Of a stretch of DNA of 64,000 bases, positions 21,001 through 30,000 are shown one piece after another. Origin of the DNA: an uncultured bacterium. GTDB lineage: Bacteria > Babelota > Babeliae > Babelales > Vermiphilaceae. Position numbers: made by a program. Within the stretch, counting starts at the first letter, position 1. Each line of letters starts with the position of its first letter. The DNA is taken from the NCBI GenBank assembly GCA_963702025.1, contig OY969699.1, positions 1,024,001 to 1,088,000 of the forward strand. Reading direction: 5' to 3'.

Positions 21001-24000
21001 TATTTTGATGCAGCAATGAAAAAAGACCCCAAACAAGATGATCCACAATTATGGTTAACCCATCCGTCGGATAAAAAACGGCATGAACAAATAACGCAAT
21101 TATTGGCAAAGAATAATACAATTACTCTTGCCTAAATTGGCATAGTTCCACGGGCTGCCATTCTTCCCTCAAGAATGGCAGTAACCACTTCATGGGCGTC
21201 CGGCTCATCATCATAAGCAACAATTACACAATCCGCGTATTCTTTGATAAGTTCAACCGCGTATGGTGAACCATAAAGAACAACCGTTATTTTTTTGCCT
21301 TCGTTGTGCAACTTTTTAATAAGCTTCAATGTTTCGGGTAAAATACCAAAATGAAGATGCTTTAATTTATTCATACCGATCAGAGAAATAACCTGATCCG
21401 CATCACTTGGGTTGCCAAGGCGATTATAGGCAATGGTTACCGCGTTTCTATAAATCTCTTTTTTAAGGTTTTTTGTTTGTTCAATAAGTTCCGGCCATGA
21501 TGGCAACTCATTTTTTGGTGTGCCATACTTTTCTTTCATTCTCAACACGCGAAGCACTTTTTCATCAATAGCCTCTTGAGCTAATCTGCCGCTTTCTACT
21601 GCGCGAACAATATACGCGATAATATGCGGAATTGGCATTCTTTTATTAGCGGGGCAAAGAAGCACATCAACACCTGCTTCCAGCGCTTTAACTTCCAATT
21701 CTCCCGCCTGATGATGATCAGAAATTCCTTTCATGCCGATGCCATCGGTCATTATTATACCCTTAAAGCCAAGTTCTTCTCGTAATAAATGAGTAATAAT
21801 ATTTGCTGATAACGTGGCAGGAATTTTTGGATTGGGTTCCAATTTTGGCATTTGGATGTGTGCCGTCATAATTGCCGGCACATTTGCGCTAATTGCGGCA
21901 CGGAACGGCACCAGTTCAATGGCGTCTAAGCGTTCGCGCTCGTGAAACATAACGGGCAATGCATAATGAGAATCGGTATTGGTATCACCATGGCCGGGAA
22001 AATGTTTTGCGCAGGATGCAACCCGTGCCCGCTCCAAACCACGTATGTAGGCCACCACCATTTGTGCAACTCTATCAGGATATGCGCCAAAGGAGCGGAT
22101 ATTAATTACCGGATTATCCGGATTATTATTAACATCGGCCACGGGTGCCAAATTCATATGAACGCCTAATTTTTGTAACAAGAGCCCAACCAGATAACCG
22201 TATTCTTCTACCAAAGCTGGATCGGGCAATGCGCCGAGCGTCATGTGATGCGGCAGTTTTAACTCGAGCGGTAAATTTTGCAGACGCATGGCTGGCCATT
22301 CCGCGTCAAGGGCAATAAGCAGCGGATCTTTACTCAGGCTTTGAAAACGTGCTGCGGTTGCCGATACATCGTAGGCTATGCAGGCGCCCAAAAATAGTAT
22401 GCCGCCAATATCATGCAGGGTAATTAGTTCTTCAATATGTGGCATATCCATGCGATATGATGAGGTGGCCATAAATTCTTGGTTGTATGCTTCATTGCAT
22501 ACCGCTGCGGCGATAATTAATTGGGCAACTTTTTGCGGGAGCGTTAAGTGTGCCAGTTTTTCTTCCGGCGTTTGCGCAGGTAACAATGGGACGAGGGTTA
22601 CTAGCATTATAATGATATTTTTTTTTCGTAGCATGACGGGTATCCTTTTTTAATGCTTCGACGGGCTCAGCACGAACGGACTCACCCGTTCGCCCTGAGT
22701 AGAAATCGAAAGATTTCGTATCGAAGGGTCAACTTTTTTCCTTTGCCAATCATAATTCATTTGCTATCATGTAACCATTTTGAAATAGTTTGTTCAAGAT
22801 GTTTTTGCACAAGGAAATAATGTACAGAGTAATGTTGTGTGTCGGAGCTTTATTTTTTAATAGTATTTGTACAATGGAACGTAGCCATTCAATGATAACA
22901 AGATCTCGCGCACGGGTTTTGGAAGAAATGCGTGTTCGGCACGAGAGAAATGAGTTTAAAGAAGAAGTTATCTCTCGTTTCTATAGAACCGCGGGTCTTG
23001 GAATAGTAAGCGTGTGCTGTTTTGGAGGCGCAGAATCAATGGATAGCATAGCGTTAAAGGTATGCTTGGGGTGCGTGGCTTGTGCGTGTGGGCAATTGAG
23101 CTTGATAAGTGGTATGCTCACGGTGAGAGATTATCAGAAATGCAAAGAATAGGGCGGTACCCTTGTTGCAAAAAGAAAGTCCAAAGCGTTTTGAGTTACC
23201 TTTGTTGTTATGCCGACCAAAAGGAGAACGTTGAATGATATTTGTAATGCTACTCTGTGTTTTTAGCGCTATCACTGCGATGGAGCAACCATCTCAACAT
23301 GAGAAGGGCAAAGCTCTTTTGCATTATAAAAAGGCGCGTGATGCATGGTTTGATTGTGCTTGGGACTCTTTTTATTATCGTGAAAAAGATGACGATGGTC
23401 GCGAAACAATGTTTTGCGCAAGAAAGAATCAATATGAAACCTGGCTTGCGGGAAATCGGAGTCGCATTAAGACCGAATGTATTTGTATAGCGTTAACCTC
23501 GGTCGCAACCATTTGTTGTATAAGTTACTTATTGTCAGAAAATATTACCGATAATTCTCAAGAAGTTTGTAGAAATTTTTCTTTAACAGATTGCTTATGT
23601 TGCTGGGGAGCTACTCTTTGTCCGGTAGAGTGTTATCTGAGCGTTCGCAATCTCTGTGATACATGTAAAGAAAAAAAATCAACTAAAACTTTATTGTGTG
23701 ACTATGAAAAAATTGAACAATTAAGGCCGGTCGAGGTTATAATTCAAAAGATGCACAATGAATAGAGCAGAGTCATCTTTTGTTAAGGTATGGATAATGA
23801 AAAAATTTACTGTCTTTGGTCTTTTATTGTGTGGCATGGTGCACGCAATGAATGAGAAGATTACACATCGATTAGCAGAACGAGAAAAATGGGCAATTAC
23901 AGCGGGATTACGCGAACCGAGTGAAAGTGAACAAGAAAGAATGGAAATAGTGAAAGATCATGCAAAAACAATGAGCTGGCTCAGTGCAGGTAGTTTGTTG

Positions 24001-27000: not shown

Positions 27001-30000
27001 AATTGAGACTTTTGATACCAATTGGGCAGCAGAAAAACCAACAACCGATGAAGTGCTTAACTACATTAACGCGCACTATATGGATGAATACGGCAGCTGG
27101 TTTTTGGGAGTGAATGTTGATATGCCCAAAGATGTTAAAGAACACTATGATTATCCCTATGGCGATTTAAAAACAGTGCAACGTAGTGCGCTTGTTGATA
27201 CTATTGCGCGTGCAGATAAAGCAGGGCATAAAGATATTGCGCAAGTGGCCAAACGGTTGCTCGAAATGGTTGATAAACGAGCAAAGTAATTGTACCTTAT
27301 GCGTAATAAGATGCATAAAAAATGAATTCGCCAGAAACCGCTCATGGTGAGTGATTGCGAAGCAATCGTATCGAACCATAATTTGAAAAATTTAAATCAT
27401 AAGAACCCTTCGATACACCGCTCTGCGAGCGGCACTCAGGGCGAGCGGAACAAGCGTACCTTTTTGTTAAAATAATTACGCATAAGGTCTATTATATTCC
27501 TGTCGGATAGGTTTCGGGGAATTCGGCGCTGATCCATGCGGGAGTTTTTTCCAGCGGTTCAACTGCTTTTGTCTGGTCAAGGTGAATAACGGCATCGAAT
27601 TGGCTTGAAAGTGCTGCATTAAAATAATGGCTGGTCCGTTCGGTTTCCGGGCGATAGATAACGCCGATGGCCCGTTCTAATTTTACCTGTTGGAACGCTT
27701 TTTTAAGTTCTTGATTTTCCTGTAAAAAGAGCATGAAATTAGGTATTTCTGCTTGGTGGAGCACCGCTTCGTAGCTATTGGCAAGCGCCGGGCGCACCTG
27801 TTTACGTTCAACCGTGCCATCCCATTCGGTTGCGGCCGAAACGGTTCCTGAATAGGTAGTAAATCCAATGAGCTTCGCCTGATCTTTATAGGTTTCTTTC
27901 ATTAATTGCCCGATATTAATTTCTCCTAATTGGCCTAATTGGGTTGCTTTCGCGTTGCCGATATGAGAGTTGTGGGCCCAAATAACCATTTTTGGTGTTT
28001 CACCTTTTTTGCTGATGTGATCAATAATTGCTTGCGCTGTTTGCATCATATGAGTATCTCGGATGTTCCATGAATCGGCCGGCGACCCAAAAAAAAGTGA
28101 GCGGTAATAATGCTCGGCATCTTTTATCAGCTGGGCATTTTGCTGCGCAAAAAAATATTCTTCAACCGCTTTTTGCCCGTCTTTGCGCAATAGTTCCAGT
28201 GAATTTTGGTGTATATCTTTTAGCTGCTCTAAAACTTGTTGCTGGCACGAGGCGCTGATATCAAACATCGTTGCATAGCCATATTGTTGCGCATTGCGTT
28301 CATACAGTTGCAAACAATTATAGCGCGATCGTGCCCGTTGGGCGGCTGCCGCGTCTGTTTTATCAAGGTAAGATAGAACTTCATCAATAGATTGGTAAAG
28401 GCTGTATAGATCCAGGCCATAGAGGCCCACCTGTTTGATGTCTTTGACGGTGCGGTTGTGATGATAAAGAGCACTGACGAATTCCACCATGGCGGTGTTG
28501 CGCCACATCCATTGCGGGAACCGCTTAAAGCCATCAAGGGCGTGAATGGTATCCGTATCCATTTTTTGACCCTGAATATACCGGTTGATCCGGTAGGCGT
28601 CGGGCCAATCCGCTTCAAGGCCGATAGCATTAAACCCTTTTTTGGTGATTAATTCCAGGGTGATCCGAGCGCGTAACGCATAGAATTCATGGGTGCCGTG
28701 CGTTGCTTCTCCCAGTAATACGCAGCGCGCATCGCCAATATAATCGAGCAAAGAATTGAGTTCATCCTTTTTTCCCGTTAAGGGGCGTGCATATTTTTTG
28801 CAGAATGCAATCAGTTCTTTTTCAACCATTTCTTTTCCTTTTTTTAAGCCGTTGGCGCTTCATTTGTAATTTATCATAGTAAGTAGGAGTAATTTTGCGC
28901 AATACTGTATAAAAAAGGGGGACAGTAATGTTTAAAAATCGTTTTGACGCGGGCAAACAACTTGCGCAAAAGCTTATGGAGTATAAAGATAATCCCAATG
29001 TAGTAATTTTAGCCATCCCGCGGGGGGCTCTTGAGATTGGCAGCGTGTTAACGCAAGAGTTACATGCGCCGCTGGATGTGGTACTCACCAAAAAAATCGG
29101 TTATCCAGGAAATCCTGAATACGCGATTGGCGCGGTGAGTCTTGATAGTGTTATTATCGATAAACGGGCTCTGGAATTTTCTGGTGACTTGGAAGCGCAT
29201 CTAAAGCAAGAAATTGCGCAAATTAAAGCGCTACTCCAACAGCGCTCCGCCCAATATCATGGTGTGCGCGAACCGATTCCGCTCAACAATAAAATTATTA
29301 TTCTGACCGATGATGGTATTGCAACGGGTAAAACACTAGAGGCAACTATTGATCTGATTAAAAAGCAAAGTCCACAAAAAATTATTGTTGCCGTGCCGGT
29401 GGCGTCACGCGAAGCATTGCATCTCATTAAAAAGAAGGTTGATGAGGTGGTTTGTTTACTGGTGCCGGATATTTTTATGAGTGTTGGGCAATGGTATGAA
29501 AATTTTGATCAAGTGAGTGATGAAGAAGCAATTGAGTTGCTGCAAGGATCATTTGTATGATGGTTTTTTTTACCCGGTCAACGGCACATTTGGTCCCCTC
29601 GATGGCAGTGAATCGCGGTGCTTATAGCAGTAAACAATTTACTGATGGTGAATGGTACGTTTCGCTTGAATCTGATGTGAGAAACGAGCACATTTGGGTT
29701 GTCACTGCAACCAATCCGCCCGCCGATCATCTTGTTGAATTACTCTTATTGCTCAATGTTCTTGAACGCAATGAACCGGCATCAATTAACCTGTTGTTTA
29801 CCTATTTTGGCTATGCGCGCCAAGATCGCCCGTTGCCAAATGAGGCATCGAGCGCGCAAGTGATAAGCCATATTTTTAAAGATTTTAAGCTTGCCAAAAT
29901 TATCATTATTCACGCACATAGTCCTCTGCTTGCCAATTATTTAAGCTTTGAAAACATTATTCCTGTTGATCTCATGTGCCGTACCGCGCAAACTTATAAA

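Follow-up and report, generated by a model that had tools for sequence, protein, structure and literature searches.

Ten consecutive small genes in the genome of an uncultured Vermiphilaceae bacterium (Babelales) may form an array that is specific to its lineage, evolves by gene birth and death and encodes hairpin membrane proteins exported towards a host membrane, a reading of their sequences to which we give a probability of about one half. The bacterial group from which the DNA originates consists of parasites of protists. Three points speak for a host membrane, rather than the bacterial inner membrane, as the probable destination: the charges flanking the hairpin, the marginal hydrophobicity of its helices and a Met that follows the signal peptide (henceforth the Met tag).

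Organization of the array

The array consists of ten consecutive + strand ORFs at 22820–26861 of the window, the whole stretch of 64,000 nucleotides analysed here, with lengths in order of 110, 176, 124, 127, 147, 142, 114, 138, 108 and 95 aa (g1 to g10). An earlier note on this DNA had described ten small same-strand genes at this site, as we find (ORFs of 95–176 aa), but had carried the range on to 27290, which is too long, as 26936–27289 (+) encodes a non-member, a soluble protein of 117 aa without Cys or family. This neighbour (58–77% identity across the genus) is the right border of the variable site, and a glycoside hydrolase family 3 gene on the opposite strand (21132–22634, −; PF00933, E 4e-75), found in all eight genus genomes, is the left one. 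Four junctions within the array overlap, by 1 or 11 bases; promoter and terminator scans stayed at chance level (11 vs 12.9 and 2 vs 4.1).

The first gene, g1 (22820–23152; 9 Cys), encodes a signal, Thr-Met, an Arg-rich helix and two hydrophobic segments separated by a loop of just four residues. Its family link is weak (BLAST to g3, E 5e-4; hold-out HMM, a non-significant E of 2.8), and its orthologue in a close strain (L066) is 80% identical (dN/dS 0.25). Predicted to form a long helical hairpin, g2 (23235–23765; 16 Cys; hold-out E 6e-14) has its nearest kin in the c1, c2 and c3 genes of related genomes; L066 and contigs of runs X5 and X10 carry a different gene in its place. Helix 2 of g3 (23797–24171; hold-out E 1.6e-4), a gene missing from the close strain, holds eight Cys and precedes a basic tail, and that of g4 (24171–24554; hold-out E 1.4e-5), whose L066 copy carries a frameshift, bears CxxC...CxxC, again with a basic tail. 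The remaining family members are g5 (24544–24987, GTG start; hold-out E 2.4e-5, dN/dS 0.29), g6 (25021–25449; hold-out E 9e-5), also a helical hairpin, and g8 (25773–26189, GTG start; hold-out E 1.8e-5), which is cleanly missing in the close strain, the joint 25782–26242 being present in contigs of runs X5 and X10. The same plan is shared by g7 (25439–25783; dN/dS 0.14), with no homology demonstrated (hold-out E 0.65). Both g9 (26243–26569; hold-out E 0.2, dN/dS 0.43) and g10 (26574–26861; dN/dS 0.38) carry a signal and Gly-Met, followed by one clear hydrophobic segment in g9 and by two in g10, the last without Cys; homology to the family was demonstrated for neither. The common plan proposed before, a last helix packed with Cys and then basic residues, therefore describes g1 to g7 but not g8, whose tail is acidic/aromatic rather than basic, g9 or g10.

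Family relationships and turnover

By hold-out profile comparison, six of the ten predicted proteins (g2, g3, g4, g5, g6 and g8) provably form one unnamed family; membership of g1, g7, g9 and g10 was not demonstrated by hold-out HMM. To call the genes barely alike in sequence was an overstatement, given BLAST E values of 1e-8 to 1e-14 among g4, g5 and g6. That they belong to no named family stands: none of the ten matched a Pfam family above the cut-off (E<=0.1), and an NCBIfam search over the 27 members of alignment A4 gave two weak single-member rows and nothing else. Because a single-protein search with g6 over 41 genomes gave no true relative, synteny and profiles were needed to find kin. 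The ESM Atlas gave no usable match for g6 and a single lead (0.76) for g2, and the best hit among PDB sequences had an E of just 0.075.

Arrays are present in four of eight genus genomes and in four further contigs, and are missing from this site in the other half of the genomes (4/8). Almost all of the family lies within a single genus, with no spread across distant taxa. Profile A3 had matches in 36 of 80 family genomes, those outside the genus lying mainly in the signal region and being excluded as members. For the array of one genome (G006) the putative kinship rests on site and plan, homology not being demonstrated by hold-out (best E 0.69; weaker cross-matches at E 0.003–0.01). An array with the same plan occurs in another family (G122, L159) and is weakly linked (E 4e-5; 0.011 on the mature parts). 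Two candidates were discarded, a second, Cys-poor hairpin family of the genome, which is not homologous (hhalign E 0.54), and a match in G154 limited to a section of what looks like an unrelated membrane protein.

Entire genes have been gained, lost or swapped between close strains. The order c1-c2-c3 is kept between two genomes. The array genes are protein-coding, since dN/dS is 0.09–0.50 in all seven gene pairs with the close strain. Array dN/dS is 0.27 vs 0.09 for the flanking genes, and together with the hold-out comparison this bears out the idea of a fast-evolving paralogue family. The threefold dN/dS over the flanks, the patchy presence and the whole-gene turnover would fit a host-facing locus.

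Signal, Met tag and export machinery

In all ten array proteins, a small residue and Met (nine Ala/Gly-Met, one Thr-Met) come after a short hydrophobic core at the N-terminus. This arrangement, singled out before as a mark of the array, is indeed present but is not specific to it, as it occurs in 334 of the 715 signal-bearing proteins of the genome (signals and hydrophobic helices were called by our own heuristics and scale). Together, the signal and the genome-wide tag support the earlier view that these are probably exported proteins. The residue after the tag Met is Glu in 156 of the 334. A relic start codon is a disfavoured origin for the Met, the second residues of true starts differing from those of the tag (Lys 18%, Asn 11%, Glu 7%; n=304).

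Among ankyrin proteins with a detected signal, 56 of 66 carry the tag (87 examined). In a 400-kb sample, ankyrin, LRR, WD40 or RING domains occurred in 20 of 78 Met-class vs 3 of 85 other signal proteins (P 6e-5). The non-Met class includes OmpA, M23, SBP, secretin and Cache proteins; OmpH falls in the Met class. It appears, then, that the Met tag goes with eukaryote-like cargo.

As to how such proteins might leave the cell, the genome has two secretins, two GspE/PilB-type ATPases and signal peptidase I. A search of this single-contig, 95%-complete genome for type III secretion gave no FlhA/SctV (PF00771) or FliP/SctR (PF00813) match, the controls being detected. The predicted type II system is the only export machine found in the genome. 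Type II systems are known exporters of folded soluble proteins and some lipoproteins; they are not known as an established way out for membrane proteins with two helices, which counts against the host-membrane reading. Among relatives, a further point against that reading is Chromulinavorax, which replicates in the cytoplasm, wrapped by the mitochondrion. A point in its favour is Babela, which grows in a vacuole with type II as its only secretion system, according to the part of its genome description available (PMC4378268).

Topology and cysteines

The helical hairpin proposed earlier is supported by both AlphaFold2 models, of g2 (pLDDT 87; predicted helices 53–103 and 117–161) and of mature g6 (pLDDT 78, pTM 0.40; predicted helices 3–70 and 86–122). 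Foldseek gave no fold match at E<=0.001; the best fold matches by Z score were unrelated coiled coils (Z 8.8, rmsd 1.6, 94 aligned; Z 9.2, rmsd 5.8, 115 aligned), both below the level trusted for helical bundles. Two hydrophobic segments were found in 40 of 43 members and one in g2, g9 and P0025. In the 40, the loop has a median of 17 residues (range 4–91) and is acidic (Asp/Glu 0.143 per residue). Lys/Arg per residue is 0.185 before and 0.19 after the hairpin (15-residue flanks), 0.078 in the loop and 0.113 in the proteome. The flanks exceed the loop in 39 of the 40 two-segment members (43 examined), a count that overstates independence because the members are related to one another; no such bias exists in the genome's non-Met signal-plus-hairpin proteins (9 of 19). 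Once its Sec signal is cleaved, a hairpin in the bacterial inner membrane would leave both ends on the outer side and only the loop facing the cytoplasm, and the positive-inside rule would then call for charges opposite to those observed. A placement of both hairpin ends on a cytosolic side is thus supported by the charge pattern. On a crude Hessa-type scale, with an equal threshold for both sets, the member helices have a median of 1.64 vs 0.62 for the helices of 38 polytopic membrane proteins (P 6e-8), which marks them as the less hydrophobic set.

Cysteine is the best-kept residue between orthologues (0.75 vs 0.52 overall in a directional count). A contrary count (46 of 59 columns), by which Cys was not specially conserved, was dropped as it took columns with Cys in either sequence. 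As claimed before, the 176-aa g2 is the most Cys-rich protein over 150 aa (9.1% vs a mean of 1.4% in a crude set of 1607 genes). Five alignment columns are 41–95% Cys, and the CxxC before the basic tail is conserved (columns at 79% and 82% Cys). The majority of Cys lie inside the hydrophobic helices. A VKOR gene is present in the genome, and with the conserved Cys it fits possible disulfides as well as possible acylation. Other small Cys-rich exported proteins are encoded at 784–786 kb.

Alternative explanations

An unlikely but serious alternative is that the proteins reside in the bacterium's own envelope, as small inner-membrane or surface proteins from which the signal has been removed or in which it serves as a third anchor, their Cys cross-linking the envelope like chlamydial cysteine-rich envelope proteins and their sequences varying as they are seen by hosts or phages. 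Such is the usual fate of Sec cargo with hydrophobic helices, and the strong Cys conservation, the VKOR gene and the further Cys-rich proteins at 784–786 kb would all suit it. The degenerate envelope of TM6, as given in the available part of its description (PMC4776705), points the same way. However, the charge bias is opposite to that of a cleaved inner-membrane hairpin, the helices are marginally hydrophobic, the Met tag is common to the array and ankyrin-type cargo, most Cys lie inside the hydrophobic helices, and the genome has no match to DsbA-type Thioredoxin_4, the one such family searched. Moreover, since they are missing from the site in half of the genus genomes, the proteins are unlikely to be structural.

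Improbable, in our view, is that the hairpins are secreted in a soluble form and then oligomerise in the host membrane as pores or translocons (a nutrient pore, effector gate or exit lysis), alone or as hetero-oligomers of paralogues. A marginal Gly/Ala/Cys-rich hairpin on long amphipathic helices would be apt for this, as would a coupled operon of paralogues with conserved c1-c2-c3 order, but the free loss and swapping of whole genes in close strains and the near confinement to one genus are unlike an essential translocon, and the fold searches gave nothing specific among pore formers.

Still less credible are metal-binding monotopic proteins, in which zinc would sit between the two CxxC pairs, in a LITAF-like or zinc-hook-like manner, while a hydrophobic stretch would dip into the membrane. 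The CxxC...CxxC plus basic motif is indeed characteristic (18 of 43 members vs just 2 of 837 small genome proteins), but 25 of 43 members miss it, the spacing between the pairs varies (~8 to 17 residues), both models put the pairs on one continuous helix, about 18–27 A apart as inferred from helix geometry, and Pfam gave no LITAF match. Finally, immunity islands typically encode small membrane proteins that are divergent in sequence, arranged in tandem and subject to gene turnover, but orphan immunity or anti-phage proteins against competitors inside or outside the host are very improbable here, as, in an analysis that did not cover PADLOC, no toxin or secretion gene lies beside the site and the family is not common to distant taxa, as immunity genes usually are.

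A possible route to the host membrane

For the preferred reading, exported hairpins aimed at a host membrane, the starting point is a set of coding genes that are coupled, evolve fast and are exchanged whole. Their short signals would lead the proteins to Sec, with cleavage before the Met. Weakly hydrophobic helices might then not be held in the bacterial inner membrane, and the proteins could exit through the type II system or in vesicles. The helix pair would enter the host-derived membrane round the bacterium (vacuole or apposed organelle) as a hairpin, with the loop in the lumen. The long, charged N-terminal helix and the basic tail would face the host cytosol and may bind host trafficking proteins there. 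In the weakest step, loop Cys and the first CxxC may form lumenal disulfides, and host enzymes might S-acylate the CxxC where helix 2 meets the cytosol.

Comparison with known systems

The resemblance to chlamydial Inc proteins proposed earlier holds for a two-helix hairpin with a loop mostly under 30 residues, but not for membership: because the signals are Sec-type and the genome lacks type III secretion genes, the array proteins are not Inc proteins. In the available part of the Inc survey (PMC3048545), Incs are defined by type III export, and the IncD-G cluster is similarly small, lineage-specific, divergent, clustered and made of two-helix hydrophobic hairpins. Charged flanks and helical cytosolic parts are further likenesses. 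The differences are an N-terminal type III signal in Incs vs a Sec-type one here, and array loops that are longer and acidic (Inc loops average 8 uncharged residues) between weaker, Cys-rich helices. Pfam scans and PDB sequences revealed no Inc homology (e.g. IncA, PF04156) for the array, although most Incs themselves miss PF04156 in that source.

The ETRAMP, GRA and STEVOR/RIFIN/Pfmc-2TM proteins of Apicomplexa have a cleaved signal, a short export-linked motif, a charged segment, one or two helices and a basic tail, and form tandem fast-evolving families inserted in host-side membranes after secretion. The array would share this plan and tempo; the Apicomplexan proteins use a eukaryotic secretory route, and we claim no homology. 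In claudins, tetraspanins and IFITM/CD225 proteins, a CxxC or clustered Cys at the cytosolic helix end, followed by basic residues, is the usual setting for S-acylation. The array has the same juxtamembrane order of Cys and basic residues, its acylation being hypothetical, and Pfam gave no match to any of these three families.

Closer to home, the available parts of the Babela (PMC4378268) and Chromulinavorax (PMC6561590) accounts describe a Dependentiae secretome of ORFans whose pattern, common to the phylum, recurs here: signals in ~44% of genes, expanded secreted and membrane families and type II secretion only; these parts name no vacuole-membrane protein, Cys-rich hairpin family or post-signal Met. 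The array had been put forward as the first vacuole-membrane candidates in Dependentiae. Our literature search found no earlier ones, but the claim must be tempered by some 30 signal-plus-hairpin proteins counted across this genome and by precedents in Babela, for which the accessible text of Pagnier 2015 (PMC4378268) reports the expansion of a membrane-protein family, together with many candidates for host interaction that are secreted or associated with membranes.

Implications

A wider proposal, which we advance tentatively and with considerable doubt, is that Babeliales build their interface with a host membrane using neither type III nor type IV secretion. Sec and type II would bring hairpins to the vacuole. 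Signal peptidase would expose a Met-(Glu/Gln/Asp/Asn) N-terminus that marks host-cytosol-facing cargo lineage-wide, either because such an N-terminus is stable and eukaryote-like or because it acts in sorting. If true, the array would be the first such hairpin family, and the Met tag would allow an effector set of several hundred proteins to be read directly from the genome. With the tag comes a rule, open to testing, by which the many orphan secreted proteins could be divided into those that face the host and those of the envelope, and the array provides concrete, small, expressible candidates for how Dependentiae may remodel or cross the surrounding membrane with Sec and type II alone. Should these proteins reach the vacuole, they would have converged on the solution that Incs provide, through a different export route.

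A family of small hairpin proteins at a variable site

The genome is a single 1.6-Mb contig in which ten ORFs (g1 to g10, 22820–26861, + strand, 95–176 aa) follow one another with overlaps at four of nine junctions. All ten begin with a short hydrophobic core, a small residue plus Met (henceforth the Met tag) and a charged stretch, followed by hydrophobic segments, and none reached the cut-off in a Pfam scan. The earlier note's shared plan of signal, charged stretch and two hydrophobic helices describes g1–g7 well, but g8–g10 fit it less closely. AlphaFold2 predicted a long antiparallel hairpin for g2 (pLDDT 87, pTM 0.68) and likewise two long helices for mature g6 (pLDDT 78, pTM 0.40), with the hydrophobic portions near the turn in both; fold searches with these models retrieved generic coiled coils only.

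The array had also been drawn as far as 27290, but its last gene (26936–27289) only borders the site, encoding a conserved, soluble, Cys-free 117-aa protein of no Pfam family. This neighbour has a paralogue at contig position 612876, copies 59–60% identical at two other loci and, in many high-GC contigs, homologues of ~30% identity; it is duplicated in locus L067. Short palindromic, REP-like intergenic repeats lie on both sides of the array (22652–22735 and 27330–27455; 70 BLAST pieces genome-wide). Nearby, a secreted M48-like peptidase (20287–21135) is single copy here, whereas the corresponding site has 2–5 copies in tandem in four genus genomes (G002, G003, G005 and G007).

The proteins g4, g5 and g6 are mutually linked by BLAST (E 1e-8 to 1e-14), and g1 and g3 more weakly. 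A hold-out profile containing no gene of this array matched g2 at E 6e-14 and g3, g4, g5, g6 and g8 at E 1e-5 to 2e-4, all better than the best of 1290 shuffles (E 0.059), the test being not wholly independent as some training proteins were gathered via a profile that included this array. With it, g1, g7 and g9 were not significant and g10 had no match.

Distribution, turnover and selection

Between the glycoside hydrolase family 3 gene (21132–22634, - strand) and the soluble neighbour, G006 carries six Cys-rich genes that share the plan and G003 at least three; the site is empty in G001 and G004, and holds one unrelated small gene each in G005 and G007. With the array of G002, on a separate short contig, this survey places arrays in four of the eight genus genomes. 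Four of 16 loci examined (of 70 returned) hold further arrays (L066, L067, L128 and L129). A 20-member profile gave 23 matches among 1.84 billion representatives, and all 17 of these that were read have the plan. A second profile, of limited sensitivity since the G006 array went undetected, was run over 230 genomes of the phylum with completeness of 80% or more and matched four: the genome studied here, G002 and two weak outsiders.

In L066, a close-strain contig, g8 is absent, a new member replaces g2 and g3, and g4 is frameshifted; contigs of two sequencing runs (X5 and X10) are joined at these places as well. A frameshift splits one array gene in L022 (8789–9171) and one in L066 (4499–4974), both relatives, consistent with birth-and-death turnover. 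Pooled against L066, seven array genes gave dN 0.105 and dS 0.388 (ratio 0.27), compared with 0.046 and 0.496 (ratio 0.09) for six flanking genes (Fisher P 2e-11). The array genes are real and under purifying selection, with constraint three times lower than in the flanks; this comparison showed no gene-wide positive selection. The array turns over rapidly and carries a real, unnamed, genus-level family.

Which membrane

Across nine diverged pairs Cys is the best kept of all residues (0.75 vs 0.52 overall). The columns in which Cys is conserved lie at the end of helix 1, in the loop and in CxxC motifs at the start and end of helix 2, the latter followed by a basic tail. This conservation, together with a VKOR gene, allows disulfides as a reading of the cysteines. 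Elsewhere in the genome (contig 784402–786232), a small, soluble, Cys-rich exported protein occurs as three paralogues in tandem; these may be envelope or secreted proteins joined by disulfide bonds.

Were these ordinary inner-membrane peptides, a cleaved signal would leave the hairpin flanks in the periplasm, contrary to the positive-inside rule: Lys/Arg per residue is 0.185 and 0.19 in the flanks vs 0.078 in the loop, and higher in the flanks in 39 of 40 members. The members' helices are also less hydrophobic than the helices of polytopic proteins in this genome. All three computed features, the charged flanks, weak helices and Met tag, speak against residence in the bacterium's inner membrane; for a host membrane, the basic flanks would mean that both ends lie in the cytosol. 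The plan itself is not unique to the array: a hairpin (stricter cut) occurs in 30 of 472 small signal proteins, three of them array genes. Among the 30 is a separate Cys-poor family without the Met tag that combines signal, charged helix, hydrophobic hairpin and basic tail (contig 470626, 474834, 893827, 958343 and 958909); one of its copies continues into a longer, fused C-terminal portion. L159 (G122, 307–3179), from a different family of the order, bears a tandem array of at least four signal-plus-hairpin proteins with weak homology to ours.

The earlier note likened the array to the Inc proteins of Chlamydia. The array proteins are not Inc proteins by the published definition (PMC3048545), since type III export genes were not found in the genome. 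Neither was VirB4; the genome encodes two secretins, two GspE/PilB-type ATPases and signal peptidase I, in line with reports on TM6 (PMC4776705) and Babela (PMC4378268). That the proteins work like Inc proteins we put at about even odds. The 'vacuole' may be the wrong membrane, as Chromulinavorax is described as forming a cytoplasmic mass around which the mitochondrion is wrapped (PMC6561590). No paper on vacuole-membrane proteins of Dependentiae was found in the literature searched, which was mostly open-access; the expanded families listed in Babela's Additional file 9 may bear on novelty.

The Met tag

Genome-wide, Met reaches 8–12% at offsets 13–15 from the signal core vs a background of 1.9%. 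The tag is found on 334 of 715 signal-like proteins, signals and helices being called by our own heuristics, of which that for signals admits false positives (SecA, FtsA and LigD among samples). Asp, Glu, Asn or Gln follows the Met in 219 of the 334 (66% vs 21%). Enrichment is strong on ankyrin, LRR and WD40 proteins. The genome has 163 ankyrin matches, part of a gene set typical of Babeliales; among 87 ankyrin proteins examined, 56 of the 66 with a detected signal bear the tag, and several of the 21 called without signal visibly bear signal or tag too. In an unbiased 400-kb sample, ankyrin, other eukaryote-like repeat or RING domains occur in 20 of 78 Met-class proteins vs 3 of 85 other signal proteins.

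Of 74 signal proteins in loci from relatives within the genus, some of which were selected via a profile including the tag, 38 bear it; in high-GC loci with distant homologues of the soluble neighbour, none of 25 does. Loci in which it was seen include L019–L025 and L056–L065. Tandem runs of small signal-plus-Met proteins, some with hydrophobic segments, occur at three loci of relatives (L059 of G001, 4564–6767; L062 of G043, 2146–6345; L063 of G009, 1895–4521). The mostly open-access literature searched contained no report of the tag.

In eukaryotic cells, an N-terminal Met with an acidic or amide residue behind it is stable and matches the consensus for NatB acetylation. We infer that it would provide these proteins with a host-stable, NatB-type N-terminus. 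The Met tag could mark effectors or be an adaptation to the host's quality control of N-termini, and is a more general lead than the array family.
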